DNA of 64,000 bases from positions 1-64,000 of IMG/VR virus record IMGVR_UViG_3300042455_000321, one strand, 5' to 3'. Source of the stretch: a virus. The position numbers and the translations under genes were made by a program. Shown here piece after piece: positions 5,410 through 55,636 of the stretch. Every line of letters begins with the position of its first letter. The first letter of the stretch is position 1. The notes beneath the pieces were generated by a model that was not told the origin of the DNA, ran no database searches, and was given only the letters and a program-made list of their open reading frames with translations.

Positions 5410-5410
5410 T

Positions 5411-5677: not shown

Positions 5678-5679
5678 CT

Positions 5680-5963: not shown

Positions 5964-5968
5964 GAGAA

Positions 5969-6358: not shown

Positions 6359-6359
6359 T

Positions 6360-6500
6360 ATGGACAAGAAACAACGAGTTATTAAAGATGATATAGACAA
6401 AGTTAATACCTATCTAAACGAGGGTTGGTATATTGTCAGCATACATACAACAAATACTACAACCATATTCTTACTTGAAAAGGACTTGACCTTAAAATAA
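6360..6500 (+). CDS. Hypothetical protein, 46 aa (not in ORF track)
   Basis: Fills gap between terS and terL; TAATG overlap. Confidence 0.6.
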   Translation: MDKKQRVIKDDIDKVNTYLNEGWYIVSIHTTNTTTIFLLEKDLTLK

Positions 6501-7645: not shown

Positions 7646-7663
7646 GGTACTTTCTATTTTTTA

Positions 7664-7678
7664 CCTATTTAAAATAAA
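7664..7678 (+). promoter_or_regulatory. Phage A putative late promoter motif CCTATTTAAAATAAA
   Basis: Exact copy at 21588-21602; variants at 14053-14060, 15571-15585, 17784-17794; all just upstream of genes in the structural region. Confidence 0.6.
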
Positions 7679-7694
7679 CTACAACAATTAATTT

Positions 7695-8348: not shown

Positions 8349-8455
8349 AATTAGATGAGGTATACGATATGCCGGTACTTCAATTCTTAAATGATTTAGC
8401 ATATTTGAAAGCGAAACAAGATTACGAGCAACAACAAATTAAAAACTTGAAATGA
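8176..8455 (+). CDS. -1 frameshift extension of the chaperone
   Basis: -1 frame open from the T9 run to 8455; no good independent start. Confidence 0.6.
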
Positions 8456-9084: not shown

Positions 9085-10247
9085 TGGGTTTAGCAGTTTT
9101 ACAAGGCAATTATGCCAGAAATCAAATGAGGTCTTTATGTAGACCAGTCATTCACGCATTCGGAGAAAATCAAGTGGTATCTTTACCTTATGCCTATAAT
9201 CGTTACATATTTGATGTATATATTAACGGAGTAATGGTTTTGAGAGAATACAAAGCCATAACTTTTAGCACAACTGTATTTGCTTATCTTGATGTAGCTC
9301 CTATAATAAAGAACTATATTCAAGCTAATATAAGATCAATGTACTTTCCATATATAGAATACCAGGTTAAATATGGAACAGAAAGTACTTCTGGAGTAAT
9401 TACTACTAATGTGGTTACCGAAACAAGTTTTGCATGGTATGGTTATCCGTCATTCTTAAATGATAATTTGATAGCTGATTTAGGTGGCACTTACTACGAT
9501 GGTATGTATTTTTCTACAAATAGAAGAAGAATATTACAATTATATGGGAATTATAAAACTTACATTCCTATTTTTAAATCTCAATTCTACGCTACAGATA
9601 CAATTGAATGGGTTTATAATGGAACAACTTACCAAAGATTGGACTCAACCGGAGTGGGTGTATATAATACTGCAATAACTGGAGCTGATTTAAACTTGGC
9701 TCAAGATGTGCATTTGTTAGAGCAATTTGTAATAAGTGGAGATCCTATTGTAAATATGCCTAACTCTACTGTTCAAATACAAACTAATTGCACAAAGAAC
9801 AATCCGGTTATGCTTCACTTCTTAAATGCAATGGGTGGTTTTGAGAGCTTCTTATTCTCTGGGGTTAATCGTGTAAATACAAATATAGAAAGACAATCTA
9901 TAAATAAATTAGGTTTAATTACTACACTAACTTCAAGTGGATTAGATAGGGATGTAAGTTTAGATAGAGTAGCAAGTGGGTATTTAGGCGAGGTTAAAAC
10001 TAACTATTCTAATACAATGACTCATAAGATTAAGTTAGTAAGCGACTATGTAAGCGAAACTGATTTCTTATGGTTAAGAGAATTATTAGCTTCTCCACAA
10101 GTATATGCTCAAATAGACAATAATGCTTTGATGATACCGGTAACAATAGAAACGAGCGACTGGGCAGAGAAGAAAAGAGGAGCAGATAAGATATTTAATT
10201 TAGAGATAGACATTCTATTAGGAACACAATCCACACAATTACGATAA
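9084..10247 (+). CDS. Tail structural protein
   Basis: FLNAMGGFESF.F and WLRELLASPQVY motifs seen in Bacteroidota siphovirus tail proteins. Confidence 0.6.
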   Translation: MGLAVLQGNYARNQMRSLCRPVIHAFGENQVVSLPYAYNRYIFDVYINGVMVLREYKAITFSTTVFAYLDVAPIIKNYIQANIRSMYFPYIEYQVKYGTESTSGVITTNVVTETSFAWYGYPSFLNDNLIADLGGTYYDGMYFSTNRRRILQLYGNYKTYIPIFKSQFYATDTIEWVYNGTTYQRLDSTGVGVYNTAITGADLNLAQDVHLLEQFVISGDPIVNMPNSTVQIQTNCTKNNPVMLHFLNAMGGFESFLFSGVNRVNTNIERQSINKLGLITTLTSSGLDRDVSLDRVASGYLGEVKTNYSNTMTHKIKLVSDYVSETDFLWLRELLASPQVYAQIDNNALMIPVTIETSDWAEKKRGADKIFNLEIDILLGTQSTQLR

Positions 10248-12388
10248 TGAGAACACAAATATTTGTAGAGGGTTTTGAATTAGATTTAACAGATGACATA
10301 GCTTGTGAGATTAGCTATGTTATTGATGATGTTAAAGAGTTTGGGAGTAAGAATACCAGCTATTCAAAGACAATAGTAATACAAGGCAGCCAAAAGAATA
10401 ACAAGATATTCAACCATATATCCGAGCTTGGAAGATTTATAGCTATTGAGAATGTAAATCAATTTGCACCTAATGTTAATGAGAATTACATAGCTGCTAA
10501 TGGAAGTAATTGCGTTATATTAGTAGATAATATCCAAATCTTTAAGGGTAAATTAAGGGTTATGGAGGTTGTCAAGTATGCAAACCATGTAGAGTATGAA
10601 TGTGCAGTATTTGGCGAATTAGGTGGGTTTTATTTTGAATTAAGCAAAGGCACAACTGATAGCATTTCAAATATATCAAATGGAGTTAGCTTATTAGAAA
10701 ATATTGACTTTACAGATTTAAATCATACTTATAACTATGCAAATATGGCTGCTTCTTGGGCAAATAGGAATGCAAATCCAGGTGTTGGGTATTTCTATCC
10801 ATTGATTGACTATGGCAAGGTAGCTGAAACTTCTGCAAGAAACCATTTTTACGAACAAGCATTAAGACCAGCAGTTTATGTTAGGGAATATATACAAAGG
10901 ATATTTAATTTAAGTGGATATACTTACGAATGCGATTTTTTTGATACTGCTTTTTTCAAGAGATTAATAGTTCCTAATAACGATGACAGATTAAAAATAC
11001 AAGTTACTAACTTATTAGATTTAGGGAGCAATTACAGTACTACATTTAACGCATCTCCATATACTTTGCTATGGACAAGTGGTAGCTTTAGAGATTTCAA
11101 TTCAATAGGAAGTGGGCAATATCAATATGTTGGTATAAGTGCATTGACTAATATCAATTTTAACTTCGGTTTTGATATGCGTTTTTCTCTTGGACCAGGC
11201 ACTTATTCATTTGAATTATGGAAGAATGGTGCATTTTTTCAAACTTTAGATAGCTTTAATACAAGTGGTTTCCCTACCGGACCAGGTTTTAATTTTAGAT
11301 ACCTTAAAAACATATCTACAACTGCATCAATAGCAGTAAATGATATATTTAAAGTTAATATTTTATATACTCCAGCCGGTGGTGGTACTTTTAGTGTAGG
11401 TTTAGATGTTTATATTAATACATGGACAATTGATGCTCCGGTTAAGGTATTAAGTCCAGCAGTAATTAATGATACTATTCAAATGCGTTATGCAGTACCA
11501 CAAAACATCAAGATAACGGACTTCTTTACTTCAATCCTTAAAATGTTTAATCTTTATGTGGTTGAGGATAAGAATATAGCTAAGAAGCTGATAATCACTC
11601 CTTATATAGATTTTTACTTAAATGAAGATTTAGATTGGAGCGACAAACTTGATAGAAGTCAAGAGATTAGGTTAAAACCTATGGGTGAATTAAATGCTCG
11701 TGTGTTTAACTTCAAATTCAAACAAGATGAAGCCTATTATAATAAAACCTACAAAGAGAAGTTTAATGAAGGCTATATGGACTTCAGTTATGATAGCGAA
11801 TACGAGTATGCTAAAGACAAAGATGATTTAGAGGTTATATTTGCATCTACTGTTAATTATGCTCCAAATGGTCAAGATAAGATAGTTCCAGCTTTATATA
11901 AAGAGGGTAACTTTGCAGATGAGAGTATTACTTCAAGCAATATCCGTATTCTACAAACCAAAATGCTGACTGTATCTCATTGGGATATTAAAAACACTGG
12001 AGGGGGTAATTTACAAACTAATATTCATCAATTTCCTTATGCTGGTATGTGGGAGCATCCTACTGTTCCGGATAATGGCACTTACTTTCAATCTTTAGGT
12101 TGGGCATCTCCAAAAGAGATTTACTACACGATTACCGGCACTACAGTTAATTATGGATTATTCAATTCATTCTGGAGTCAATACTTTGCAGAGATAACAA
12201 ATCCTAATAGCACAATCTTGACTGCTCAATTCCATTTAACGAGCATGGATATAAGAACATTAGATTTTGCAAAAAACATACTTATAGATGGAACGATGTG
12301 GAGAATAAACAAAGTTGAGGGTTATGATCCATTAAGCGAGAAACCTACGAAAGTAGAATTATTAAAAGTAATAGACACAATTTATTAA
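10247..12388 (+). CDS. Tail tip/hub protein
   Basis: LDL..DI, SYSKTI, YPLIDYG, LKMFNL, DWSDKLD, TKVELLK; next to tape measure. Confidence 0.65.
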   Translation: MRTQIFVEGFELDLTDDIACEISYVIDDVKEFGSKNTSYSKTIVIQGSQKNNKIFNHISELGRFIAIENVNQFAPNVNENYIAANGSNCVILVDNIQIFKGKLRVMEVVKYANHVEYECAVFGELGGFYFELSKGTTDSISNISNGVSLLENIDFTDLNHTYNYANMAASWANRNANPGVGYFYPLIDYGKVAETSARNHFYEQALRPAVYVREYIQRIFNLSGYTYECDFFDTAFFKRLIVPNNDDRLKIQVTNLLDLGSNYSTTFNASPYTLLWTSGSFRDFNSIGSGQYQYVGISALTNINFNFGFDMRFSLGPGTYSFELWKNGAFFQTLDSFNTSGFPTGPGFNFRYLKNISTTASIAVNDIFKVNILYTPAGGGTFSVGLDVYINTWTIDAPVKVLSPAVINDTIQMRYAVPQNIKITDFFTSILKMFNLYVVEDKNIAKKLIITPYIDFYLNEDLDWSDKLDRSQEIRLKPMGELNARVFNFKFKQDEAYYNKTYKEKFNEGYMDFSYDSEYEYAKDKDDLEVIFASTVNYAPNGQDKIVPALYKEGNFADESITSSNIRILQTKMLTVSHWDIKNTGGGNLQTNIHQFPYAGMWEHPTVPDNGTYFQSLGWASPKEIYYTITGTTVNYGLFNSFWSQYFAEITNPNSTILTAQFHLTSMDIRTLDFAKNILIDGTMWRINKVEGYDPLSEKPTKVELLKVIDTIY

Positions 12389-12389
12389 A

Positions 12390-14045
12390 ATGGCAGATAA
12401 TATAGTAGGCACAAAGATAGTTATTGACTCTTCACAAGCAGTTGAGTCGGTTGGTAGTATTAAAAAGCAATTAAGAGATGCAACAAATGACTTGGTATCT
12501 TTAGCAGCTAAATTTGGCGAAGGCTCACAAGAAGCAGTTAATGCAGCTAAACGAGTAGCAGAATTAAGAGATAGAATTGGAGATGCTAAAAGTATGGCAG
12601 ATGCTTTCAATCCAGATGCAAAATTCAAGGCATTTAGTCAATCTTTGCAAGGTGTTGCCGGTGGTTTTGCAGCAGTACAAGGAGCAATGGCTACTTTTGG
12701 AATTGAGAGTGAGGATTTGCAACAAACTTTAGTAAAGGTACAAGGTGCTTTAGCTTTAAGTGAAGGGTTAAATACCTTTTTAGATACTGGTATTCAAGGC
12801 TTTAAAAACTTAATATCTGTTATTCAAAATAGCACCATTGTAATAAAGGCAAACGAATTAGCGACAAAGGCTGCAGCAGTTACAATGCGATTATTTGGAA
12901 TTGAGGTAGAAACTACAAGTGTGGCTTTTAATGTTCTTAAAGGAGCTATTGCTGCAACTGGTATAGGTTTACTTGTGGTTGCTTTAGGACAAGCAGTTTC
13001 TTATTTTGATAAACTTTCAAATGCAGCTGAAGAAGCTACTGAAAAACAAAAAGAGTTTAATAGAACAATTAAAGAAGGTAGCAAGTATGAACTTGACCAA
13101 TTAACTCAATCTTTAGATAATCAACAAAAAATTGATTTAGCAAAGGCAAAAGCAAGAGGGGCAAGTGAGAAAGAGATATTTGATATTGAGCAAAGTTATA
13201 GAAGAAGAAGAACGGAAGCTCAAATTAGGCACTATAACGATATTAAGAAAATAGACCAACAAGGTGCAAAAGAGGCTTTAAATACTATAAACAAGTCAAA
13301 TGCTGAGGGCATAGCTGCTAATTACGAATATCAAGCAGCAGAAAAAAAGAGAAGGCAAGAAGCGGCAAAACAAGCTAAAGAAGAAGCAGAAAGAAGAAAA
13401 AAGCAATTTGAAGATAGTAAGATTGAGCTAACTGAAATGAGTTCAATTACTCAAATAGCAACTAAAGAAGAGCAAAATAGTTATAAAGATGTTAGCAAAC
13501 TAAAAAAACAAAACATTGTTTTAAATACTCAAGTTGCAGACTCGGAAAGGTTATTAGCTCGTGCTAAAATGGAGTCAGCTATTATAGCTCTTGATGCTAT
13601 TTCGCAAAGTTTAGCTACTGCAAGTCAATTGGCAGATGAGGGAAGTGATACTCAAAAAGCATTGGCTATTTCAAGTGCAATTATCTCGGCTATTTTATCG
13701 GCTCAAAAGGCTTATGAAAGTACAGTAGGTATTCCAGTTGTCGGACCAGCTTTAGCTCCTATCAATGCCGGTATAGCTTTATATGCTGGTTATAAATCAG
13801 TACAAAAAATTAGAGACGTAAAAACTCCTGGAGCAAGTAGTGGTGGTGGTGTAAATATGCCAACTGGTAGTTTTGGAGCAGCTCCGGTAAGCCCAGCTCC
13901 TATGCAGCAAACTGTAACTCAATTAAATCAAGGAACAATTAATGCACTCGGAAATCAAGCTATAAAAGCATACGTTTTAGAGAGCGATGTAACAAATTCA
14001 CAAAATAGAGTAACAAGAATACTTAATTCAAGTCGCTTTAAATAA
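12390..14045 (+). CDS. Tape measure-like protein
   Basis: Ala-rich helical, two hydrophobic regions, coiled coil, no Cys, KAYVLESDVT C-terminus. Confidence 0.75.
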   Translation: MADNIVGTKIVIDSSQAVESVGSIKKQLRDATNDLVSLAAKFGEGSQEAVNAAKRVAELRDRIGDAKSMADAFNPDAKFKAFSQSLQGVAGGFAAVQGAMATFGIESEDLQQTLVKVQGALALSEGLNTFLDTGIQGFKNLISVIQNSTIVIKANELATKAAAVTMRLFGIEVETTSVAFNVLKGAIAATGIGLLVVALGQAVSYFDKLSNAAEEATEKQKEFNRTIKEGSKYELDQLTQSLDNQQKIDLAKAKARGASEKEIFDIEQSYRRRRTEAQIRHYNDIKKIDQQGAKEALNTINKSNAEGIAANYEYQAAEKKRRQEAAKQAKEEAERRKKQFEDSKIELTEMSSITQIATKEEQNSYKDVSKLKKQNIVLNTQVADSERLLARAKMESAIIALDAISQSLATASQLADEGSDTQKALAISSAIISAILSAQKAYESTVGIPVVGPALAPINAGIALYAGYKSVQKIRDVKTPGASSGGGVNMPTGSFGAAPVSPAPMQQTVTQLNQGTINALGNQAIKAYVLESDVTNSQNRVTRILNSSRFK

Positions 14046-14067
14046 CATTTAAACTATTTATTATTAT

Positions 14068-14667
14068 ATGGCATATGTATACAGACATATAAGAAAGGAT
14101 AAAAATGAGGTATTTTATATAGGAATTGGGTGTAGTCCTAACTATAAAAGAGCATATGAAACTCATAAAAGAAATAGAATTTGGGATAGGACTGTATCAT
14201 TAACAGAATTTGAAGTAGAAATATTATTTGATGAGCTAACATGGGAAGAGGCTTGTGAAAAAGAAAAGGAATTTATAGCGTTATATGGTAGGGTTAATTT
14301 ATGTACTGGCACTTTGGTTAATTTAACAGATGGGGGAGATGGTGGATTTGGAGTTGTTAAAAGTGAAGAAGAGAAAATTAAGAGAAGTGAAAAAATGAAA
14401 AAACAACATAGTTGGGCTAAAAATGATAAAAGAAATAAAATAGTTGAAAATTTAAAGCTAAAACAAACTGGATCTGGCAATAGCTTTTATGGTAAAAAAC
14501 ATACTGCAGAAACTTTAGAAAAAATAGGAGAGGGAAGAAGAAAATATATTTTAGATTTACAAACAGGCATTTATTTAACAGTTAAAGAATATTCAGAATT
14601 AAATAATATAGCAATTAGTACAACAAGGGAAATAATACCAAAAAACAAAAATTATAAATATGAATAA
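14068..14667 (+). CDS. GIY-YIG-like homing endonuclease with NUMOD3
   Basis: YVYRH...FYIGIG...R, NLTDGGDG, NSFYGKKHTAET. Confidence 0.85.
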   Translation: MAYVYRHIRKDKNEVFYIGIGCSPNYKRAYETHKRNRIWDRTVSLTEFEVEILFDELTWEEACEKEKEFIALYGRVNLCTGTLVNLTDGGDGGFGVVKSEEEKIKRSEKMKKQHSWAKNDKRNKIVENLKLKQTGSGNSFYGKKHTAETLEKIGEGRRKYILDLQTGIYLTVKEYSELNNIAISTTREIIPKNKNYKYE

Positions 14668-15559
14668 TATAAATAATATACCATTTTACTATTTAGATAT
14701 CAGCTCCGACTTCAACGATGACAGTGAGGTGGACTTCATCGCACTCGTTGACAAACCTGCAATTCAAAAGAATTTCTTAAAGTTTGCTGACTCATTTAGC
14801 GACTATCCGGAGAGTGTAAAGAATACTGCTCAAAAGGCTTTAGATTGGGCAAATGAAAATGGTTGGGGTACTTGTGGGACTCCCATAGGTAAAACAAGAG
14901 CTAATCAATTAGCAAGTGGAGAGCCAATCAGTTTAGATACTATCCAAAGAATGTACTCTTATTTAAGCAGACACAAAGTAGATTTAGAAAGCTCTAAAAG
15001 CTACGAAGATGGTTGTGGTAAATTAATGTATGATGCTTGGGGTGGCGAAGCTGCTTTAACTTGGGCTGAAAACAAACTAACAAGTGTTCAAAAAATGAAA
15101 TTCTCAATCAATGAGGATGAGCAAATCGTTTCTGGTCCTTTAATGCTTTCGGACACTCCGATTTATCGTTTTGATGCAAACGGAGAGTATTATGTTGTGT
15201 TCAATGCAGCTACTATTCAAAAGATAGTACAAAAGTACTTCCAAAAGGGATATCAAGCAAACGTAAACTTAATGCACAATCCTATGCAAATAGTTGATGG
15301 GGTTACTTTATTTGAGAGCTTTATTACTTCAAAGAAAAGAGGCATACACCCAATGGTTGGTTTTGAAGATGCACCAGAGGGTAGTTGGTTTGGAAGTTTC
15401 AAGGTAGATAATCCAGAAGTATGGGCATCTATTAAGAACGGAGATTTCAAAGGCTTCTCGGTTGAGGGTTTATTTAAGTATAAAAGACCAGAGGAAATGA
15501 AAGCAGAGCAAATAAAATCTCAAATCAAAAACTTACTTGACCAAGTTAAGTTGCACTAA
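14660..15559 (+). CDS. Prohead protease (XkdF-like) with inserted domain
   Basis: IALVDKPAI, VNLMH, PEGSWF, GDFKGFSVEG; precedes scaffold and capsid. Confidence 0.8.
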   Translation: MNNINNIPFYYLDISSDFNDDSEVDFIALVDKPAIQKNFLKFADSFSDYPESVKNTAQKALDWANENGWGTCGTPIGKTRANQLASGEPISLDTIQRMYSYLSRHKVDLESSKSYEDGCGKLMYDAWGGEAALTWAENKLTSVQKMKFSINEDEQIVSGPLMLSDTPIYRFDANGEYYVVFNAATIQKIVQKYFQKGYQANVNLMHNPMQIVDGVTLFESFITSKKRGIHPMVGFEDAPEGSWFGSFKVDNPEVWASIKNGDFKGFSVEGLFKYKRPEEMKAEQIKSQIKNLLDQVKLH

Positions 15560-43800: not shown

Positions 43801-45441
43801 ATGGCATTTACTCCAGAACAAATAGCAAAAGCTTTTGCAGGTGCTCAAGGTGATATATATGAGGTCTTTCAACAAAGAGCTAACCAAGAAGCTAAGCAAA
43901 CTCAATTAGAAAGAGCTTATGCTAAACAACAATTAGACGCTGAAAGAAAGGAAAGAGCTGAAAGAAACGCAGCTTTAAATGATGTATTGACTGCTCAAAG
44001 AAACGCTAATTTAGCTACTGGTACTAAGTTAGATGAGTTGTATAACCAAAAAAGCATGGAGATATACCAAGATGCTTTTAACGCAGAAAATGCTCAATTA
44101 TATAAAGATAACTTACCTCTTTGGAAACAACAAGTTATCCCAAAACTTACAGCTTTAAAAAGCCAAGAAGAAAGTGTTGCATCTGGGTTAAAAAAAGTTG
44201 ACGAGTATATTGCTAAAAAGAACCAAGAATTAGGAGGGGCTTTGAATGTTCCTGCTGTAAGAAATGCAATCATTGACGGGTTGGCATTTGACGCTAACAA
44301 TAAAGTTACAGGTTCTTTAAATGCAGAAGATGCCACGTTAGATGCAATATTATCAGGTCACTATGACTTTAAAAATAAAAAACCAATAGATAGTGGTGCT
44401 GACTCAGCTGAATATGCTGCTGACTTTTACGACCCTACTAGAACTGAAAACCTGGTTATTACTAAGTTTAAGCCAGATATGGTTCAACCTATCCCTGTAA
44501 AGTATAGACAAAATGGTATTCTTATGAATGATATTTATAAGATGCCTTCTTATTATAAAGTAGTTGAGGGACAGAAAGACCCTGTATTAGACGTTGTTTC
44601 TATTAAAGGTAAAGATGGTGGTGAATATACTGTTGCTTCTGAAAATATGAAACAATTACTAACCAAAGAACCTATTTCCAGAATGGCAATTCAACACCAT
44701 GCAAGAATGTTGAAAGACACACCTGAAGGTCAAGAAGCTTTTACAAACTTAGACAAAAATCAATTTAATGATTACGTTATAGCTGACTTTTCTAAAAAGC
44801 TACCTAAACCTTTCAAAGAAGAAACAAGAGTTGACCCTAATGATAAAGAGTTGTTTGATAGAATGACAGCTAGAGCTAGAGGTGATAAAGAAGATAAAAC
44901 AAAAGATAGCTTAGACTATTTGATGTCTTTATATGGTAAATCATACCCGCAAATAGGTAATTACCCTACTCCAAGTAAAGCAAACTACTCAGAACAAAAC
45001 CTACCTTCTGGGGTTGACATGGGTAAACTTCATGATATAACTTCTAAATCTGGTTCAGACTTATTAAAAGACGCAAGTAACATTTCTTTCAAAATATGGA
45101 AAGATGAAACTACTGGCCAAGATTACTTCTCAGTTGAAGAAACTAAAGGTGCTAACTCTGTACAAACAGCATTATCTAAAGAAGCTGATAGAAAGGGTTG
45201 GAAGAAAGGACACTTCTATAAAGTTCCAAGTGTAGATTGGTATTTTAATTTCCCTTCTACAAGTGGCAGAACAGATACTAGAACAATGGAGAAAACAAGT
45301 AGAGATGTTAAAGCTGGTTCTACTGCCCCTGTTACTACAACAGCTGCAAGTGTTACTACTGCTGCACCTTCTGGTGTAAACTGGGCAAAAAAACAAAAAG
45401 ATGCTGAAGAAGCAAAAGCAAAAGCAAAAGTTAAAAAATAA
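43801..45441 (+). CDS. Putative internal virion/ejection protein (546 aa)
   Basis: No Cys, Q/A/K-rich helical N-terminus, first gene of cargo operon. Confidence 0.55.
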   Translation: MAFTPEQIAKAFAGAQGDIYEVFQQRANQEAKQTQLERAYAKQQLDAERKERAERNAALNDVLTAQRNANLATGTKLDELYNQKSMEIYQDAFNAENAQLYKDNLPLWKQQVIPKLTALKSQEESVASGLKKVDEYIAKKNQELGGALNVPAVRNAIIDGLAFDANNKVTGSLNAEDATLDAILSGHYDFKNKKPIDSGADSAEYAADFYDPTRTENLVITKFKPDMVQPIPVKYRQNGILMNDIYKMPSYYKVVEGQKDPVLDVVSIKGKDGGEYTVASENMKQLLTKEPISRMAIQHHARMLKDTPEGQEAFTNLDKNQFNDYVIADFSKKLPKPFKEETRVDPNDKELFDRMTARARGDKEDKTKDSLDYLMSLYGKSYPQIGNYPTPSKANYSEQNLPSGVDMGKLHDITSKSGSDLLKDASNISFKIWKDETTGQDYFSVEETKGANSVQTALSKEADRKGWKKGHFYKVPSVDWYFNFPSTSGRTDTRTMEKTSRDVKAGSTAPVTTTAASVTTAAPSGVNWAKKQKDAEEAKAKAKVKK

Positions 45442-45452
45442 AAATCACTTTA

Positions 45453-48400
45453 ATGCAAGATAAAATAGTTATTAATGGCGTTGTATTAAATGACGATGAC
45501 CAAGATTTAATTAACCAAGCATATATTGACCAATATGGTAAGTTAGATTACGAGAGTCCTGATTTTAACAATAGAATGGACGCTCTTGCAAAAGACTACA
45601 TGGGTTGGAAGAAAGGCGAGTTAGATAAAAGTTCCTCTAAATTAATTAATTCATCTTGGACAGATTTAAAAACCCAAGCAAGCCCACAATACCATAATGC
45701 TTTAATGCATCTTTCTGGTATGCCTATATCTTCATTAAATCAACCTATAGAGTATACAGCACCAGAAGTTAAAGTTACTGCAGAGAAAAAGAAAAGATTT
45801 GTTGGTCCAGTTGAAGAGGTAGATTATAGCCCTCAAAGAGAGTTTAAATTTGAGCCTGAGATTGCAGAAGCCAATAAACAAGAACAATATGACCCATTTA
45901 CCAAATACGCTGGTGATTTCTTAGTTAAAACAGCAGGTAAAGTTTGGCAAGGTATTGGTTCTTTTCTATCTGATGTTGGTAGAGCAAAAGCTGAATTACA
46001 AAAAAATCAAGAGTCATTAGAAGACTACGATGTACAAGAAGCTGTTAGCAAGATAAACAAAGCAGAGAAAGGTATATTTACTAAGCCAGCAGAGAGAGTT
46101 AAGCAAGAGTTTATTAAAGACGTTGAACAAGTACCTATTATTGATGAGAAGACTGGTAGTGTTAGCCCTAAAGGTTTTGCTCAAGGCATAACAGGGATTG
46201 CATCTACTATTGCCCCATACACTATTCCTGTTGAGGGTATCGGTGCTTTAACTGCTGATATAGCTACTAGCAAATTAGGAAGATGGGGTATTAATTTAAC
46301 TAGCAATTTTATGAATCAGTTTCCTAAAGTATTCTACCTAACAAAAGGTGAGTCTTTAGAACAAGCTGATAAGATGGGGCTATCTGAAGAAGATGCTCAT
46401 AAGTTTGCTACAGCTAATGGTTTGGCAACAACATTTGCCTTTTCTCTTCCTGGGTCTTTCCTTAATTTAAACCCATACAAGAATACATTATCTAAGTTTA
46501 TACTTAACCCTAAGAACTTGTCTACAACTAGACAAATGTTAAATTTTGGTACAGGAGCTGCAATGAGTGGTACTTCAGGTGCATTAGCAACCGTAGGGGA
46601 GAAAGTAGCAAAAGACTTGTACGCTGAAAATAGAATACCTATGCAAGGTGATTTAGTAACTGCCAAGTTACCTAATAACCAAGTTGTAAAAGAAAAGATT
46701 ACAGGCGTATTTGAAGATGGTACTTATAAAGTAGGTGATTTGGATATACCTTTTCAAGCTGCTGATATACAATTAGAGCCAGAAGAGTACTTATCAAAAG
46801 AAGCAATGAAAGAGTATGGTAAAAGCTTCTTGTCTATGGCCGCACTCCATGGGTTAATGGATTATAAAGGTGCTGGTAGAATGTTCAAAAACAACAACAG
46901 TTACTATACAAATACTGTTGCTGATATGGCTTCTCCTAAGAACTTTGCCAATAGTGTAACGCAAATATCAAGAGAGATAAATAGTGGAGTTGTATCGCCA
47001 GAACAAGGAAGAAAAGCAATTTCATTATTAAACAAAATACAACCATATGTTACAGATGCTATGGTATCTATGGAAAACAACCCTAGATTTAATAAAAAGT
47101 ATTTTGGTAACTATGTGTTTGCTTCAGCAGAAAGAGAAGACTTAATCAACAAAAGAAACCAAGCTGCTAAGCAAATGTCTACAAGCTTATCAGAAGGAGA
47201 AGAAGTTCAAGTAAGAGACAACAACGGAAAAGTTATTACAAGCAATGCTACTGTTGAGTCTATTAATGAAGGACCTGATGGTAATATCCAATTTAAAGTA
47301 TCTGGTATTGATGCACCTGTAAGTGCAGAGAACATTATACCTGTAAGAAATACAGAAGCTGCCGATAAGATGGAGGCAATTTCTAATCAAATAAATACTG
47401 TATCTCGAGATATTAAAAAGATACAAGATGGCAATGCATTTAGAGGTAGATTAGTTACTTCTAATGAAGTTGTACAAAAGGCTTCTGATGCTTCACCTGA
47501 CGGAAGATTAAAACCTTTCCAAGTTAGGTCTATGGCTGAAATTCCATTAGGGTTTTTCTCCGAAGTTGCTAACCCATTAAGATTTGAAAACGACCCTATT
47601 GTTAAGAAACATATCAAAGATATAGAGTCTGGAAGTTTAAAGGTTACTGGAGAAGAAACAACAATGCCAATTGTTTTAGATGAGAATGGCAATATAATTG
47701 ATGGCCGTAAGAGAGTTGCTCAAGCTATCGTTGAAGCAAGAAGAGGTAGATTAGGTAACGTAGATAATTCTTTTGAAGTATTAAGACCTATTACATTTGC
47801 TGAAGCAGCTAAGAATGTATCGGATATGCATGACTCAGACCCTGAAGTGCAAAGACAATACTGGGATAACATAAAAGTTCCTGGTACTCCTGAAGCTGCT
47901 ACTCAATTAGGCGTAGAGGAAATACCTGTTGACATGAACATTAAACAGGCTACAAGTAAAGTATTCCAAGATACTAAAACAAAGATTGCTGATAACGATG
48001 AAGACGTTGATGCTACTGACGTATTAGATGGCAATGTAGAAGGTGCTTTTATTGATGAGGCTACTAATACTACAGTAACAGCTGCTGAAAAGATTAAGAC
48101 GTTTTTAGAATATTATAATACACTACCAGAGTCAGAGAAAGTAAAAGCTTTAAATGATTTTGTTAAAACCCTAAACTCTACTGTAGATGCTAATGGCAGA
48201 AAGGTATATGGGAAGAACCCAGAGTTTGAAGCTTTTAAAGCTGCTGTAGACTTCTTGAGAAAAATGGGCGTACCTAAAGAAGATTTAGCTAGCGCACTTC
48301 ATAATGGGTTATTACCTAGTTATAATGACCAAGGAAGAGTTGAAGGATACATTAATGGTGCATTAAAGATAATGGAAAGAAAAGGTATGTTAAAAGATGA

Positions 48401-49151
48401 CGTTATTACCTTTGCTGACATTGAAACAAAAAGACAAGCTGAGGCAAAAGCAGCTGAAGAAAAAAAGTTAAGAGAAGAAAAAAGAAATAGCAATAAAGAA
48501 ATGAAGCTTAACCAATTTGCTGAAAGAGTAGCAAGTAAAGGTAAGTTAGCATTTGCTAAAAATAAAGCTGAACAAGATTACTATAATAGAAACAAAGCAG
48601 AGATAGATAGAAGAGCAGAGATAGTAAAAGAAGCTAAGAAACAACAAGCAGAGAAAGAAGCTAGAACTGAAGAAGGATTTGAAGTTGTAGGTCAAGTAGA
48701 AGGTAAACCTGTTGCTGCGGTAGAAGTTGTAGAAGAAGTTAAAACTGAAGAGCCACAAAAAGAAACTATAGTTGGGGCTAACGTATTAGGTAAGGACGCT
48801 ACAGGTGCAGAAGTAAAAGGCCAAGTAATAAATGAAATGGCTAATGGTGACTTGATAGTTAAGACTGACTCAGGTAATGTAATTATTAAGAGTGGGGACA
48901 TTTTAGAGATAGGTGGTAAAACAGCTATTATCCCTGATGAGATTACTGTTGCTACAGAAGAACAGCCATTTGAATTTGAAAGTGATATGGAAGAGCAAAC
49001 TACAGAAACTGAAGCAGCTAAACCAGAGTACACCCAGAAAGCTAAAGAAGCTGAGTTTACAAGACCAGAGAATATGAAAGACGTTAAAGACTTATTTGAC
49101 CAACTACGTAGACTTAAGTTGCTTGAATCTAAAGGAAAAGATTGTTTATAA
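45453..49151 (+). CDS. Large putative ejection protein (1232 aa) with ParB-like domain
   Basis: G/A-rich amphipathic segments, PIVLDENGNIIDGRKR, sole Cys is penultimate. Confidence 0.6.
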   Translation: MQDKIVINGVVLNDDDQDLINQAYIDQYGKLDYESPDFNNRMDALAKDYMGWKKGELDKSSSKLINSSWTDLKTQASPQYHNALMHLSGMPISSLNQPIEYTAPEVKVTAEKKKRFVGPVEEVDYSPQREFKFEPEIAEANKQEQYDPFTKYAGDFLVKTAGKVWQGIGSFLSDVGRAKAELQKNQESLEDYDVQEAVSKINKAEKGIFTKPAERVKQEFIKDVEQVPIIDEKTGSVSPKGFAQGITGIASTIAPYTIPVEGIGALTADIATSKLGRWGINLTSNFMNQFPKVFYLTKGESLEQADKMGLSEEDAHKFATANGLATTFAFSLPGSFLNLNPYKNTLSKFILNPKNLSTTRQMLNFGTGAAMSGTSGALATVGEKVAKDLYAENRIPMQGDLVTAKLPNNQVVKEKITGVFEDGTYKVGDLDIPFQAADIQLEPEEYLSKEAMKEYGKSFLSMAALHGLMDYKGAGRMFKNNNSYYTNTVADMASPKNFANSVTQISREINSGVVSPEQGRKAISLLNKIQPYVTDAMVSMENNPRFNKKYFGNYVFASAEREDLINKRNQAAKQMSTSLSEGEEVQVRDNNGKVITSNATVESINEGPDGNIQFKVSGIDAPVSAENIIPVRNTEAADKMEAISNQINTVSRDIKKIQDGNAFRGRLVTSNEVVQKASDASPDGRLKPFQVRSMAEIPLGFFSEVANPLRFENDPIVKKHIKDIESGSLKVTGEETTMPIVLDENGNIIDGRKRVAQAIVEARRGRLGNVDNSFEVLRPITFAEAAKNVSDMHDSDPEVQRQYWDNIKVPGTPEAATQLGVEEIPVDMNIKQATSKVFQDTKTKIADNDEDVDATDVLDGNVEGAFIDEATNTTVTAAEKIKTFLEYYNTLPESEKVKALNDFVKTLNSTVDANGRKVYGKNPEFEAFKAAVDFLRKMGVPKEDLASALHNGLLPSYNDQGRVEGYINGALKIMERKGMLKDDVITFADIETKRQAEAKAAEEKKLREEKRNSNKEMKLNQFAERVASKGKLAFAKNKAEQDYYNRNKAEIDRRAEIVKEAKKQQAEKEARTEEGFEVVGQVEGKPVAAVEVVEEVKTEEPQKETIVGANVLGKDATGAEVKGQVINEMANGDLIVKTDSGNVIIKSGDILEIGGKTAIIPDEITVATEEQPFEFESDMEEQTTETEAAKPEYTQKAKEAEFTRPENMKDVKDLFDQLRRLKLLESKGKDCL

Positions 49152-49166
49152 TAAAAACTATATAAA

Positions 49167-49667
49167 ATGATAAAACCAGTACAACTACCTAAAGAAGTAG
49201 TAGCAGAATTAACCCCAAGAATATGTGATGAACATAAAGCTTTTTATTTCTATAAAGCAGCAGCTAACTGGTGTTTTGAGAAAGGATATATGAAAGCAGG
49301 AGCGTTCTTCCAACACGAGTCTAAAGAAGAATTAGAACACTCTGAGATACTTGAAAAGTTTATCCGTGATTGGAATGTTATCCCTGAATTAGATGCTATT
49401 GAGCAGCCTCCTTTGGAGTTTGATGGCTTAGTAGATATTCTTGAGCAAGCATACGAAATGGAGTATAAACTTTATGAAGATTACGAAGACTCTAGCAAAG
49501 CAGTCTTTAAAATTGGAGACCTATGCGCTTTTGATTTGTTACAACAGTTTAGGACAATTCAAAAAGATAGCGTAGCTTTGTATAGCGATTTCTTAAATAA
49601 ATTAGAATTGATAGACGCTACTGACAAATTCCAATTATTCTACTTCGAAAACAAACACTTTAAGTAA
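49167..49667 (+). CDS. Ferritin-like protein
   Basis: E..A...Y...A.W....G..GA.FF..ES.EELEH, AYEME, D...FD.LQ.F..IQ. Confidence 0.9.
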   Translation: MIKPVQLPKEVVAELTPRICDEHKAFYFYKAAANWCFEKGYMKAGAFFQHESKEELEHSEILEKFIRDWNVIPELDAIEQPPLEFDGLVDILEQAYEMEYKLYEDYEDSSKAVFKIGDLCAFDLLQQFRTIQKDSVALYSDFLNKLELIDATDKFQLFYFENKHFK

Positions 49668-52600
49668 TGGATTGTATCTATACATACAAAGGGCAAACGT
49701 ATTCTTATGCCGACCTAATTAAAAAATTATCAGAAAAAGACCTTGCTTCTTTAAAGGAAAGAGGTCTTATTTCTGTTGATAGCAAAACATTTGAAGGTTC
49801 TTTATCTTCACCTACTATATTTAAAGACATTGACAATGCTATAGCTGGAGAAAACTATGGCGTTGTTACTACTGATAAAGATGGTAATGTAGTTACTACT
49901 GAGTCTATCAAGGGTTCTAAAGGAAGCTTTGACGAAACAGGGGTTAAGAAATTTGCTAATGACGTCAATGACATCTACAGAGAAAACAATAAGACTGCAC
50001 CAGGTGTTAAGGTAGTTGTTGCTGACGCTAAGACATTTAATGAAGTCCATAAAGAATACTATGATGGGGTTGAAGCTTCTGAATATGATGAGGCTTTCTA
50101 CGACCCTAATACCAAAACTATGTATATCAATGCGTCTCAAGCATCATTAGACGCACCTCTCCATGAGTCAACCCATATATGGTTTAAGTTCATAGAGAAA
50201 AGAAGCCCAAGAATATTTCAGGCTGGTATTAATATTGCAAAAGCATCATCTCAATATAACAAGTATATCAAGTATAAACAAGCTTATGATATGCTTAGGG
50301 CTAAATATCAATTTGAGAAAAAATCAGATGCTGAAGCTAAGACTCTTGCAATGGAGCAAGCAAAAAATCAAGTTGTATTAAGCAAAGCTGATAACTATCT
50401 TTATGAGTATTTTGATATTACATTAGGTAGTGGTATAGAAGGAGAAAACAATTTAGCAAGCGAAATACTTTCAAGAGAGACAGAAAAGGCGTTTAAAACA
50501 AAATCAAATAATGAGTTTTCAAAATGGTATACTACTATGATTGAAAGCTTTGTTGATAAGAAAGGATTTAAAGGATTAACATACAATCAAGTAAGTAATT
50601 TATCTTTAAAAGATTTTACTTCTAAATTGGCTGATGAAGTATCTGGAGGTATTAGAACTAAGAGTGGTAAAGCTAGAATGGCGACTACTAAACTTATTGA
50701 AGATAAAACACCTGCACAAATAGCTGCAGAACAACAACGAAACCAAAACAAGTCACCACAACAAGGTAGAGGTGCAGCTAAAAAAGAAACTAAACCTGAA
50801 CCTATATATTCTACTGATGTAATTGATATATTAAATCAATCAAATAAAGGTAAGGCTATATTAAAGAAAGCTGAAGATTTGTTTGAACAATCAGGGTTAC
50901 TACAAGAATATGCAGAGAACGAAGGGTTAAGCATGAACAACTTAACACCTCAAGATGTTAGTTCATTAACTGAACAAATATTAGGTGATATAATGGTAGG
51001 TAACCTTAGAGTACCAGCTGAATTTGCTGGTTCTAATTCTATTGGTACATTAAGCACAAGAAGAGGTAGTATGCCTTCTGGTTTAGTTGGAGACGCATTT
51101 AAAGAGTTAGGTGATGGCTTGTCTAAATCAAGCGGTAAAGACGTTTCAGGCAAACAAATCAAATCAAGATTAACAAACGAGGTTAAGCCTACTACCGCTG
51201 AAAAAATTCCGTTTGCAAAAGCTAAAGCAGCATATGAAACAGAAAATATTGATAGTGGAATAAAGAGTGAAGAGGAACAAATTATTGATAAAATTGTTGA
51301 GCTTCAAGATTTATTAAACGTAGAGGACCTTTCCCCTGAAAATAAAAAAGCCATCAGAAATGAAATTAATGAGCTTGTTAAAAAACAGCAAGCAATTTCT
51401 GAAAATCAAGGTAAAGTTTATAAAGGTTCTGGTGACATTGAAGCATTGCCTTCTTCTGAGAAACCTTTAAAGAAGATATCTGATAGAGAAGAAGATGTTG
51501 TTGGAGATGTTGTTAATATTAGAACTGACGAAAAGAAATTAGCTAAGAGACAAATCAATTTAAAAAATTGGTTATTACCTGCTGATAGAAAATTACCAAT
51601 GTCAGCATTGTCTGAGTTGGAAAAGGCTCAAGGTATGAAAGCATACTATGAGAGAACCGATATTGAATTATTGAATACTTTAAAGAATGAAATGTCAGAA
51701 TACATTGGTGAATTAAACCAAGGTAAAACTGAACCAGACCCTATGGGTACAGCTGAAGGTTTATCTAAAGTTATTGATAATGCATTGAAAGGTGATAGAG
51801 CTGCATTTGATTTACTTAGCCCTAAATTAAAAACTACTGTAGATTTAATGAGGTCTAATATAGATAACGCATCTGAGTTCATTATGGGCACAGGTTGGTT
51901 AAGTGCTGCTGAGTTATCTGAGTATCAAAAAAACCTAGGTACTTATGTAGCTAGATTATATGATAAATATACAACCCCTAATGTACCTGTATCTAAGAAA
52001 GTTAAAGATAGAATAATATCTAAAATACCTGGACTAAGAGTATTAGTTAAAGAAGATAAGCCAATAGCAAATGCACAATGGGTTAAAGACTTATCTCCAG
52101 AGCAAATAAAAAATGCTATTGATGGGTTCCAAACATGGGTTAAGAATGGTTATTCTGATACAGCTGCTGATATCAATGCTGGAACAGGTTTTAGACAAAG
52201 AGCAATAGATTTGCAAGGTTTAAAAGATAAATTAACTGCTGAAACCCAAAAGAAAATAGATGCAGAGACTGCTATGAATAGTGGGGAGGTTAAGAATAAA
52301 AATAAATGGCAAACTGAATACAATGAAATTATCAACAATATTGATAAATTAACTAAAGAGTATGAGGCTGAAGAAAATCAGTACAATAAAGACGTAATTG
52401 ATGAAGCTAAAAGATTATATGAAGATGCTATCCAACATGTAGAGAAAGGTCAGTATATGGAGTCAGCTAATGGTTCTATAAACACTAAGCAATTCATGAA
52501 GAGAAAGGACTTGCCACAATGGTACAGAGAAGTTATTGGAGAAAGCAATAATGTATTTAAAAATTACTTCTATACTATTGGTAGATTGCAAAACCTTGGT

Positions 52601-54856
52601 AACAAATTACAACTCCATAATAACATATTGGAGATGGGATTAGAAGCTGGATATATTGTAAAGGGTAATGTAAGAGATAATAAATACAAGAACTATGTAT
52701 TAGTAGGTGGAGAAAGTGCTTACCCTGGTGCTACAAAAAAAATGCAAGGACCTTTGTATGGGTATAAAATGGACCCATTGTTATACAAAGCTATGTTTGA
52801 AATGCCTTCGTTTACTATTGGTGATGAAACACTTCAATCTACATTAGCCCAAAAGATAGGTAATGTATATATGGGTCAAGTAGACCTTGTTAATATGATG
52901 AAAGTAAGTTTAAACTTATCTTCTATTATTAGAAACTTTGAGTCATATTTTAAAGGTGCATTTATGTTGTCTGGTACTTATCCTGATTTAATCAGAATGA
53001 CTACTTCAATGGCAAAAAAAGGAAGCAACTTTTTAGTTGATGGTACATTGTATTATGAGAACAGAAGCGCTGAACAAAAAGGGAAAACAGAGGGCTATAT
53101 TAAAGGATTAGCCCAAGATGCTTTACAAGATGGTGCTATTACTTCTATTAGTGAAGATGCAATAAACCAATGGGTTAAAGTATTAAACTCAGATAACAAG
53201 TTTGATGATGCTCTTAAAATAGGCAACACAGATGCTTTATATAAACAATTCTATAACTCTATGGGTTATATGGCTAAAGCTGCTGTTAAAGGTATGCAGA
53301 AGCTGTTTATATTAGGGGACGTTGCACCTAAGATGGTACAATATGAGATAAGAAGAAACACTATATCTTTGGATATATATGGTAAGAACTTCTATGAGTT
53401 GAACGAGAAACAAATGAAAGCCGTTAGAGAAGCTGCTTCATTAGATGTTAAAGAAGACTTTGCAACCCCTTCAAGAGCAGCTGAATTTGGTAAGTTTAGA
53501 GGTGTCGGTACGTTTGCTAGATACCGATATGAAATGTATCGTACAATGTATAATACTGCACGTCAAGTAGCAGGATATGATTTAGATAAAAGCTACAAGC
53601 ATATTAAGTTTTCTGATGATAAATTAGAAAATCAAGATATGATTAACAAGTTAGCTAGAAACAAAAGAAGAACTAAGATGATTGGTGCTGCTACATTTAG
53701 TGGTGCATTACAAGGTACTTATGCTTTAATGAGTGGTATATTCAACTCTAGCAAAGAAGAGGACCAAATGAAACAGAATGGTGTAATTACTAACTCTGGC
53801 CTTGGTGAAACTAATCTTATGTATGAGATGTATGCTAATGCTAAAGCTGTTTTAAATGGTGATGCGTCAATGAGACAAACCGTTCAATTAGTTTTACCTG
53901 ATTACCTATACGATAAAAGTATTGAGTATACATATGACCCTAAGACCAAGAAGATGACAGTATTAAACCTTAGCCAAAACGACCAGTTTGCTGTTGTTAC
54001 CGATTGGTTGAGAGGTTTAATGTATGATAAGTCTCCTTCCGATAGACCATATGCTGACTATAAAGGGGTAGGTAACAGGTCTATTGATGTAGTATCTGAC
54101 CAATTATTAACATTTGGTGGTGCTCCTGTATTGTTACTTACTGCTTTTAAAGCTGCTAACGATAAAAAGACAGCTAATGAATCTCAATCAGAAGGTTTAA
54201 TTAATAAAACCTATGTGAATGGTAAAAACTTTGTTCAAGGTGTATTACCAGGTGACATGAGTACTTATACTAAAAATGCTGAAATGGCTAAGTATGCTAA
54301 TGAAGAGTGGGTTGATGCTGCTGGTAATACAATTAATGATATGATTGTTAGCGGGTTCAGAGGTAAAAAGATGGAGATTAATGTATATGGTTCATTGTCT
54401 GGTAGAATTAGAAAAGAACATAAAAGAGCAAGTGATGCTATTATAATGGCTAATGAAGAAGTAGATAAGATTTTAAATTTAGCTGCAACTAGATATAAGA
54501 AAGAAGACGGTAGCCGTGTTAATAGTTTCTATGAAATACCAAGCTTTGACCAAAAGCAAGCTATATTAGAAGACAAGGATATAAAAGAACAATTAGATAA
54601 GCAAAAAGAAATTCTTAACAAACTATTGAGAGCAACTGTAAAAGCTAATAAAATGTATTACAATGCTGCTAAGAAGTTCTCATTTAGCAAAGAAGAATTA
54701 GATACATTGTTTAAAGATGCTAATAGTAATAGGGTTGATGTAGGTAAAATCAAAGGTGATATATTGTTTGATGAAGACTACATGAACATATTGCAACGCT
54801 CTGAAAAAGAGATAGATACATTAGATTTTGGTTCAATGCTTTATAGCTTAGATTAA
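49667..54856 (+). CDS. Giant polyvalent cargo protein (1729 aa) with zincin-like metallopeptidase motif
   Basis: AFYDP...MYIN...PLHESTHIW ... SEILS; sole Cys at residue 3. Confidence 0.6.
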   Translation: MDCIYTYKGQTYSYADLIKKLSEKDLASLKERGLISVDSKTFEGSLSSPTIFKDIDNAIAGENYGVVTTDKDGNVVTTESIKGSKGSFDETGVKKFANDVNDIYRENNKTAPGVKVVVADAKTFNEVHKEYYDGVEASEYDEAFYDPNTKTMYINASQASLDAPLHESTHIWFKFIEKRSPRIFQAGINIAKASSQYNKYIKYKQAYDMLRAKYQFEKKSDAEAKTLAMEQAKNQVVLSKADNYLYEYFDITLGSGIEGENNLASEILSRETEKAFKTKSNNEFSKWYTTMIESFVDKKGFKGLTYNQVSNLSLKDFTSKLADEVSGGIRTKSGKARMATTKLIEDKTPAQIAAEQQRNQNKSPQQGRGAAKKETKPEPIYSTDVIDILNQSNKGKAILKKAEDLFEQSGLLQEYAENEGLSMNNLTPQDVSSLTEQILGDIMVGNLRVPAEFAGSNSIGTLSTRRGSMPSGLVGDAFKELGDGLSKSSGKDVSGKQIKSRLTNEVKPTTAEKIPFAKAKAAYETENIDSGIKSEEEQIIDKIVELQDLLNVEDLSPENKKAIRNEINELVKKQQAISENQGKVYKGSGDIEALPSSEKPLKKISDREEDVVGDVVNIRTDEKKLAKRQINLKNWLLPADRKLPMSALSELEKAQGMKAYYERTDIELLNTLKNEMSEYIGELNQGKTEPDPMGTAEGLSKVIDNALKGDRAAFDLLSPKLKTTVDLMRSNIDNASEFIMGTGWLSAAELSEYQKNLGTYVARLYDKYTTPNVPVSKKVKDRIISKIPGLRVLVKEDKPIANAQWVKDLSPEQIKNAIDGFQTWVKNGYSDTAADINAGTGFRQRAIDLQGLKDKLTAETQKKIDAETAMNSGEVKNKNKWQTEYNEIINNIDKLTKEYEAEENQYNKDVIDEAKRLYEDAIQHVEKGQYMESANGSINTKQFMKRKDLPQWYREVIGESNNVFKNYFYTIGRLQNLGNKLQLHNNILEMGLEAGYIVKGNVRDNKYKNYVLVGGESAYPGATKKMQGPLYGYKMDPLLYKAMFEMPSFTIGDETLQSTLAQKIGNVYMGQVDLVNMMKVSLNLSSIIRNFESYFKGAFMLSGTYPDLIRMTTSMAKKGSNFLVDGTLYYENRSAEQKGKTEGYIKGLAQDALQDGAITSISEDAINQWVKVLNSDNKFDDALKIGNTDALYKQFYNSMGYMAKAAVKGMQKLFILGDVAPKMVQYEIRRNTISLDIYGKNFYELNEKQMKAVREAASLDVKEDFATPSRAAEFGKFRGVGTFARYRYEMYRTMYNTARQVAGYDLDKSYKHIKFSDDKLENQDMINKLARNKRRTKMIGAATFSGALQGTYALMSGIFNSSKEEDQMKQNGVITNSGLGETNLMYEMYANAKAVLNGDASMRQTVQLVLPDYLYDKSIEYTYDPKTKKMTVLNLSQNDQFAVVTDWLRGLMYDKSPSDRPYADYKGVGNRSIDVVSDQLLTFGGAPVLLLTAFKAANDKKTANESQSEGLINKTYVNGKNFVQGVLPGDMSTYTKNAEMAKYANEEWVDAAGNTINDMIVSGFRGKKMEINVYGSLSGRIRKEHKRASDAIIMANEEVDKILNLAATRYKKEDGSRVNSFYEIPSFDQKQAILEDKDIKEQLDKQKEILNKLLRATVKANKMYYNAAKKFSFSKEELDTLFKDANSNRVDVGKIKGDILFDEDYMNILQRSEKEIDTLDFGSMLYSLD

Positions 54857-54868
54857 ACGTATTATATA
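54854..54868 (+). promoter_or_regulatory. Phage B putative late promoter
   Basis: Exact TAAACGTATTATATA. Confidence 0.75.
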
Positions 54869-54886
54869 GACAAATAAACACATAAT

Positions 54887-55636
54887 ATGAGTTTTTTAGA
54901 TAAATTAATTGACAAAGGTATAGACCCAGTAAGTTTAGGGACAGGTTTGTTCCAGGGCATTGCTGGTGTGGTTGGTAATATAAAAGCAAAAAAGCAATAT
55001 AACCAAGCTGAAGAAGCCCATAAACTCGCTATGGGTGGAAGACCAAGTTTCCAAATATCTCCTGAAATCAAACAAAGATTAGCTATGGAGCAGGCTCAGT
55101 ATAATGCTGAAGACCAATCTGTAAAACAAGCTAGAGCAGCACAAGAACAAGCATTAGCTAACTATATGGGAACTGCTCAAAGAAATGCTTCTAGCGGTAG
55201 TCAAGCTTTAGCTACAGCTGGTGAAGTTGCAGGTAATACAATGCAAGGTGCGGCTAGATTAGGTGCTCAACAGTTTCAAAACCAATTACAAAAAGGTCAA
55301 ACTTTAGGCCAAGCTCAAAACGCTATGGCACAACAAAGAATGTTGAAATATGAAGATGCTTTAGCTGCTAATCAAGAAAAGCAAGCTTTTGAACTTGGTA
55401 AAATGCAAGCGTATAGACAAGATATTAATGACTCTAATAAAAATATTTTTGGTGCTTTACCTGGCGTTTTAGGTGGATTAAGTGGATTGTTTAGTAGAAA
55501 CATGAAACAAGTTGACATTCCAGGAATAAGTTCAATTTCAAAACCTAGACCATTTGATGTAAGTTACCAAGGACCTCAGCGTTCTTACCCAGGATTTGGG
55601 AATCAGAAAGTAAATTTTTCTGGATTTGGTGATTAA
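54887..55636 (+). CDS. Small ejection protein (Gly/Ala/Gln-rich)
   Basis: Hydrophobic Gly-rich ends around a Q/A coiled coil, no Cys; P22 gp7/T7 gp14-like architecture. Confidence 0.6.
   Translation: MSFLDKLIDKGIDPVSLGTGLFQGIAGVVGNIKAKKQYNQAEEAHKLAMGGRPSFQISPEIKQRLAMEQAQYNAEDQSVKQARAAQEQALANYMGTAQRNASSGSQALATAGEVAGNTMQGAARLGAQQFQNQLQKGQTLGQAQNAMAQQRMLKYEDALAANQEKQAFELGKMQAYRQDINDSNKNIFGALPGVLGGLSGLFSRNMKQVDIPGISSISKPRPFDVSYQGPQRSYPGFGNQKVNFSGFGD

Follow-up and report, generated by a model that had tools for sequence, protein, structure and literature searches.

In the cyanopodophage A4, cryo-electron microscopy (cryo-EM) has revealed a disulfide between two proteins of the pre-ejectosome, which joins cysteine (Cys) 1715 of gp27 to Cys5 of gp26 (PNAS 2025, PMC12002296; the structures named in the paper are PDB 9K2V and 9K3A). 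In gp27 the Cys follows a C-terminal helix, and the metallopeptidase domain of A4 is found on a separate protein, gp28 (PMC12002296). Polyvalent proteins are giant phage proteins of mosaic structure, presumably delivered along with the DNA, in which a zincin-like HExxH peptidase serves as hub domain (Iyer et al. 2017, PMC5512222). The polyvalent-protein paper makes no mention of cysteines (PMC5512222), and a 2022 review of ejection proteins makes no mention of a principle based on terminal cysteines. Here we describe two giant proteins of 1232 and 1729 amino acids (aa), called giant 1 and giant 2, which are encoded in the window, i.e. the first 64 kb of the 91,067-bp IMG/VR virus record IMGVR_UViG_3300042455_000321, and are separated by a ferritin-like gene. 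Giant 1 has its only Cys one residue before the C-terminal end, giant 2 close to the N-terminal end, and we estimate at about 0.6 the probability that a disulfide between the two residues clasps the giants end to end, as ejection proteins packaged in the particle.

Cysteine content and placement

The giants belong to a block of five closely spaced open reading frames (ORFs) on the plus strand (43801-55636), whose products contain 0, 1, 3, 1 and 0 Cys, in this order (Table 1). The four products other than the ferritin-like protein (546, 1232, 1729 and 249 aa, 3,756 aa in total) feature 2 Cys, versus ~29 expected from the remaining proteome of the record, in which Cys makes up 0.78% of the residues (Poisson P ~8e-11). 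Neighbouring virion proteins, as well as the giants of related phages, are likewise Cys-poor or Cys-free. A low Cys content is not special by itself; the real signal is the facing terminal placement of the two residues. Were each single Cys placed at random, the chance of finding one within the last 2 residues of giant 1 and the other within the first 3 residues of giant 2 would be ~3e-6. Seven other proteins of the virion module having 1 to 3 Cys, six of them a single one, were taken as control, and every Cys is internal. The Cys count, and the tail-to-head placement on consecutive giants, had been pointed out in the initial annotation of this DNA, and both were confirmed by the ORF translations.

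Conservation of the terminal cysteines

Giant 1 relatives in a large protein collection (52-99% identity) all end with ..LESKGKDCL (10 out of 10), that Cys being the only one they have. An additional relative, a fragment encoded by the IMG/VR contig L006 (32% identity), ends with ..NNPKECP, and Cys plus one residue is the C-terminus of all 11 proteins. Giant 2 relatives at 58-67% identity begin with MDCIYTY, those found at 30-35% identity by an exhaustive HMMER search (P0016, P0017 and P0019) with MADCL, a start common to the relatives at 28-35% identity. Two remote collinear homologs of giant 2, P0020 (2172 aa) and P0022 (2356 aa), share 18-19% identity with it and begin with MSKL[KR]DC[LI], the N-terminal Cys being again the sole one in the chain. 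In a nine-sequence alignment of giant 2 relatives, which reaches down to 18% identity, 15 columns only are invariant, including D2, C3, H166, E167 and H170; the Asp-Cys pair is conserved to the same degree as the zinc-protease motif HExxH.

Two contigs show relatives of both giants. The metagenome contig L002, whose giants are 52-58% identical to those of the window, encodes a 1418-aa protein ending with KDCL, a ferritin, a 1881-aa protein starting with MDCIYTY, and a 255-aa Cys-free protein. On L006, where giant 2 is 27% identical, the protein ending with ..KECP is followed by a ferritin, a 1810-aa protein starting with MADCLQSKY, and a 312-aa Cys-free protein. The three loci have the same gene order, namely giant, ferritin, giant and small Cys-free protein. 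In all of them the partners are on the same strand, the protein with the C-terminal Cys is upstream, and the 501-bp ferritin gene lies between the two. The codons of the Asp/Glu-Cys pairs vary among loci (GAT TGT versus GAG TGC and GAT TGC), and selection therefore acts at the protein level, not on the DNA word.

Scans of viral contigs with giant 1, its alignment, P0020, the giant of the locus L012 described below, or the ferritin alignment returned only L006 or the contig of the query itself, and the single metagenome scan returned L002 alone. Neither giant 1 nor the ferritin found a match by tblastn in 50,697 phage records, and Pfam and PHROGs gave no match for the giants or their terminal pieces. 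Both terminal cysteines, whose conservation had been named beforehand as a test of the coupling of the giants, are kept in all the homologs found.

Recurrence of the pattern in other phages

Facing cysteines were found also in the locus L012 (IMGVR_UViG_3300035162_003201, 63-6764), which was reached via the protein P0023. A 599-aa protein with its only Cys at residue 596 (..KDCLIK at the end) is followed, 3 nucleotides (nt) downstream, by a 1632-aa protein with its only Cys at residue 3 (MACPN..) and HExxH at 267. The two genes follow each other without a ferritin in between, and no similarity of their products to the window giants was detected outside the peptidase region. P0023 (1499 aa) features both Cys5 and Cys1499, the latter being its last residue, and by its sequence is possibly the middle link of a chain. 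The protein matches the HExxH domain of Gundel_1 gp74 at 58% identity. The N-terminus of P0023, MTLNC, resembles the MPLNC/MTLNC of the cyanophage gp26 family, and no wider similarity was found.

Other phages have a single Cys-free giant with HExxH in the middle of the chain. Such proteins are Gundel_1 gp74 (2482 aa, L003:8035-15483) and the giants of L007 (3882 aa, 3212-14860), L010 (3570 aa, 3755-14467) and L011 (4815 aa, 179-14626), which may be the one-chain counterparts of the split pair. No similarity to giant 1 was seen in the upstream halves of these four proteins or of a 3859-aa protein of MW202828, and for this reason none of them is called a fused equivalent. The 3859-aa giant is encoded by the phage with the closest portal (MW202828.1, L015:741-12320, minus strand), and its single Cys, at 1638, is 23 residues past the HExxH at 1615.

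The closest parallel is offered by A4 itself. In the genome KF356198 (Anabaena phage A-4L, the same as A4) gp27 is 1717 aa long and has its sole Cys at 1715 (..DNPCQF), gp26, encoded by the next gene, is 1114 aa long and has its sole Cys at residue 5. In two relatives of A4, at 23-27% identity, Cys1494 of 1495 (..TNCL) faces Cys5 (MPLNC..) in Pf-WMP3, and Cys1505 of 1506 (..NPCL) faces Cys5 (MTLNC..) in TR020; both upstream proteins terminate with ..CL, as giant 1 does. The A4 and the window systems are alike in that both belong to podophages, an upstream giant has its sole Cys at the C-terminus after a helix, the next partner has its sole Cys at the N-terminus, and the surrounding ejection proteins are Cys-poor. 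In the AlphaFold2 model of giant 1, helices at 1195-1220 are followed by a low-confidence tail which includes the Cys, a predicted layout that matches the helix-then-Cys arrangement of gp27. The two systems differ in that the partner genes are adjacent in A4 and separated by the ferritin gene in the window; the zinc peptidase resides on the downstream partner in the window, on gp28 in A4; the hosts are Flavobacteriia for the window phage, cyanobacteria for A4; and the disulfide was seen in A4, whereas for the window giants it is a prediction. No PDB chain shows detectable sequence similarity to the giants. The parallel with A4 is by pattern only, because similarity to gp26 and gp27 is not detectable; judged on the sequences, the device is the same, in proteins lacking detectable homology and not members of the same family.

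The two cysteines could alternatively have separate partners or modifications (portal, capsid interior, DNA), the termini being merely co-located in the core. The giants are not homologous to the A4 pair, and their pairing is deduced, which would leave room for such separate roles; yet both cysteines occur together in every locus in which both genes are visible (window, L002, L006, L012, A4, Pf-WMP3, TR020), and the single Cys of other virion proteins of the record is internal. Separate roles are accordingly assigned a low probability.

A proposed disulfide clasp between ejection proteins

Giants 1 and 2 would be internal (ejection) proteins of a ~58-kb podophage infecting Flavobacteriia, purged of cysteine like other proteins of the extracellular particle. 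One thiol would be kept at the flexible C-terminal tail of giant 1 (K-D/E-C-x-COOH), another at the N-terminus of giant 2 (M-(A)-D-C), and the two would most likely form an intermolecular disulfide inside the particle. Such a bond would fasten giant 1, by its C-terminal helix and tail, to the N-terminal domain of giant 2, in the way gp27 and gp26 are joined in A4, and would be opened later by the reducing cytoplasm. Packaging, bond formation and later opening are what we infer. Indirect signs of the putative packaging are the Cys depletion, the size of the giants, the podophage context, and the HExxH domain in common with Gundel_1 gp74, which is annotated as structural.

A comparable logic is known from AB-type toxins, in which an interchain disulfide is reduced in the cytosol of the target cell. 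In both cases one disulfide joins two chains outside the cell, and would open in the reducing cytoplasm. There is no homology, the toxin being a nicked single chain and the window partners separate gene products, and the analogy is one of logic only.

Several points weigh against the disulfide clasp. No match below E = 0.1 was obtained for the giants versus A4 gp26 and gp27 by phmmer and profile PDB searches, local blastp and hmmsearch, and the bond as well as the packaging are predictions made from the genes. The joint occurrence of the two cysteines rests on four loci. Cys3 lies 163 residues before the zinc-protease motif of the same chain, and may therefore have a different role. The block is not located inside the virion module but runs towards it, on the same strand as the replication genes. 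Finally, related phages (Gundel_1, L007, L010, L011) manage with a single Cys-free giant and have no pair.

The proposal of a terminal disulfide or docking coupler, made in the initial annotation, was in part borne out, since the cysteines are conserved in all homologs, the pattern recurs in L012, and A4 provides a cryo-EM precedent; the bond itself, an ordered passage through the tail and a release upon reduction in the cytoplasm are still predictions. If the pairing holds, a lone Cys at the facing termini of otherwise Cys-free giants could predict which internal proteins are joined in uncultured podophages, and would provide a first wiring diagram of the ejection complexes of phages that cannot be cultured. 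The pattern is displayed by cyanopodophages, in which the bond was seen by cryo-EM, and by a flavobacterial podophage clade, in the absence of detectable sequence similarity, and the one published case, A4, may exemplify a more general principle.

The ferritin gene between the partners

The ORF located between the giants matches PF00210 with 71.8 bits, over a gathering cut-off of 24.5 (E = 7e-20), and its stop codon overlaps the start of giant 2 (TAATG). A ferritin of the same length, 166 aa, is encoded at the same place in L002 (4461-4961) and L006 (523-1023). The ferritins of the different loci are 76-86% identical at the aa level, versus 27-58% for the flanking giants, and both Cys36 and Cys120 are conserved. 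The gene is a conserved operon passenger. Its product is not Cys-depleted, and is therefore read as an intracellular protein, not as cargo.

Along with the coupler, the initial annotation had considered that one ancestral gene of ~2,960 codons had been split by insertion of the ferritin, with duplication of the 6-bp GATTGT. In such a case the cysteines would be leftovers of the event. The hexamer is indeed present at 49140 and 49670, and is found at both junctions in L002 also; moreover, other phages encode giants of 2,500-4,800 aa in which the HExxH is internal. However, GAT and TGT are the preferred codons for Asp and Cys (546 vs 245, and 40 vs 18, respectively), GATTGT occurs 18 times on the plus strand of the window, and the hexamers of L006 differ (GAGTGC and GATTGC) and are in another register (KECP at the end of one protein, MADC at the start of the other). 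The pair exists without any inserted gene in L012 and in the A4 group, and a neutral scar would not remain invariant at 18-32% identity. No fused relative, which the annotation had suggested looking for, was found among proteins of 2,157-5,000 aa, weak evidence by itself, and the upstream halves of the single-chain giants described above are dissimilar from giant 1. The split by a ferritin cassette with a 6-bp duplication is thus unsupported, and very improbable.

A single chain could in principle be made also at the RNA or ribosome level, by an intron or a translational bypass skipping the ferritin stretch. The take-off and landing codons match (GAT TGT at both junctions), and the join of 49145 to 49676 would be in frame. 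Still, no intron or RNA family was found by Rfam in the interval 48900-49900 (one chance-level small RNA hit only), a conserved ferritin ORF with a significant Pfam match occupies the 524-nt gap, and the hexamers are not conserved in L006. To our knowledge, the gap is ten times that of any known bypass (T4 gene 60). The chance of recoding is next to nil, and an intron or a ribosomal bypass across this stretch can be excluded for practical purposes.

The ferritin may also bear on the chemistry of the link. The [DE]-C and D-C termini might jointly bind one Zn or Fe, in a zinc-hook-like fashion, the ferritin possibly supplying or buffering the metal. Both cysteines are preceded by an acidic residue in three loci (window, L002, L006), as is the upstream Cys of L012, and a well-conserved ferritin is fixed between the partners of the same three loci. 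In contrast, the link was modelled as a disulfide in A4 (PMC12002296), no acidic residue stands in front of the Cys in proteins of the A4 group (they have H, N or P there) or in the downstream protein of L012 (MAC), and two Cys plus two carboxylates would be an unusual site. A metal-bridged clasp is, as a whole, distinctly unlikely. The ferritin might also be part of the clasp machinery in a broader sense, supplying either an oxidant, as by-product of the ferroxidase reaction, or the metal which joins the [DE]-Cys termini in the reducing cytoplasm, while Cys3 would additionally gate the zinc peptidase, making the release of injected proteins redox-switched. The context for this idea, a long shot, is a gene located between the partner genes, translationally coupled to giant 2 and better conserved than the giants.

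Predicted folds and the putative zinc peptidase of giant 2

Residues 1-360 of giant 2 were modelled with a mean predicted local distance difference test (pLDDT) score of 75.5, and the model displays a small N-terminal element (1-35) followed by a peptidase-like domain, in which the HExxH is located in a helix (162-179). The best Foldseek matches of the model are M4 peptidases and the anthrax lethal factor (probability 0.98, E = 9e-3); in VIA comparisons Z values of 5-6 were obtained with YbeY, the M30 peptidase lugdulysin, the Pro-Pro endopeptidase PPEP and the lethal factor. Giant 2 shares the HExxH domain with gp74 of Gundel_1, a phage with podoviral morphology, and gp74 is annotated as 'structural protein'. 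Among the domains of polyvalent proteins, LPD38 or LPD39 is present in ESM-atlas neighbours of giant 2, and matches to LPD23, below threshold, were found in P0020 and P0022. Giant 2 fits the polyvalent class of injected giant proteins with a zincin hub domain; the window giants differ from described polyvalent proteins in that the window proteins give no match above threshold to any LPD or peptidase model of Pfam.

The putative peptidase on the chain that carries Cys3 leaves room for another role of this residue. Cys3 and Asp2 may bind the catalytic zinc of the HExxH of their own chain, keeping the peptidase latent as do the pro-domains of matrix metalloproteinases, while that of giant 1 would work in trans, or have a role of its own. 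In giant 2 the conserved Cys precedes the HExxH, the N-terminal fold is predicted to be zincin-like, and D2 and C3 co-vary perfectly with H166, E167 and H170 over 9 sequences. In each remote giant whose Cys is N-terminal, namely P0020, P0022 and the 1632-aa L012 protein, an HExxH is found within ~270 residues. On the other hand, an N-terminal Cys is found in A4 gp26, Pf-WMP3 gp25 and the TR020 homolog, and A4 gp26 lacks HExxH, the A4 metallopeptidase being on gp28; in P0023, HExxH is 770 residues away from Cys5. Such a switch would also leave unexplained the penultimate Cys of the upstream protein, which is equally conserved, and is considered unlikely.

The model of giant 1 has a pLDDT of 51.7, and Foldseek matched only small Sm/Tudor-like barrels (three beta-barrels). 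A motif found at residues 737-759 of giant 1 (window 47661-47729), TMPIVLDENGNIIDGAKRVARAI, looks ParB/sulfiredoxin-like. A ParB-like domain was not confirmed, the ddrB-ParB lead in the ESM-atlas having a score of 0.87, below trust level, and Pfam yielding none.

Composite nature of the record

The 91,067-bp record is composite, being made of two parts with different GATC and CCGG content and different head modules. In bases 1 to ~33,000 there are 25 GATC and 59 CCGG sites; the head module encoded there is of siphovirus type, with a portal similar to that of Nonlabens phage P12024 (35.7 kb). Bases 35,001-91,067 contain 1 GATC and 0 CCGG, vs ~179 and ~49 expected, respectively. The last CCGG of the record is at 32869, the last GATC at 33040, except for a single GATC at 38480. 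This second part carries on its minus strand another head module, which includes a large terminase, a P22-like portal, a major head protein and fibres, and whose relatives are ~60-kb podophages of Flavobacterium, Cellulophaga and Tenacibaculum. Either the assembly is chimeric, or two genomes are joined in the record. The block encoding the giants sits in the second, podovirus-type part. The relatives of the giant-bearing phage are Elemovirus, Pachyviridae and Pervagoviridae, and the phage is not crAss-like, as indicated by the P22-like portal and the podophage relatives. No virion RNA polymerase was detected in it.

Table 1. Features of the giant-protein block (coordinates are those of the window)
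Feature	Position	Strand	Remarks
546-aa Cys-free protein, first of block	43801..45441	+	0 Cys; no Pfam/PHROG match
Giant 1, 1232 aa	45453..49151	+	sole Cys is residue 1231, penultimate (ends ..ESKGKDCL)
TGT codon, Cys1231 of giant 1	49143..49145	+	invariant alignment column, including the 32%-identical L006 fragment
Ferritin-like gene, 166 aa, 501 bp, between the giants	49167..49667	+	3 Cys; PF00210
Giant 2, 1729 aa, predicted N-terminal zincin-like metallopeptidase domain	49667..54856	+	sole Cys is residue 3 (MDCIYTY..)
TGT codon, Cys3 of giant 2	49673..49675	+	invariant in relatives
HExxH motif (HESTH, residues 166-170) of giant 2	50162..50176	+	H166, E167 and H170 invariant
249-aa Cys-free protein, last of block	54887..55636	+	0 Cys; converges on minus-strand virion module

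Further downstream, a 1856-aa fibre-like protein is encoded on the minus strand, from position 61898 to the end of the window (64000) and up to position 67468 of the record; its one Cys, residue 827, is internal.

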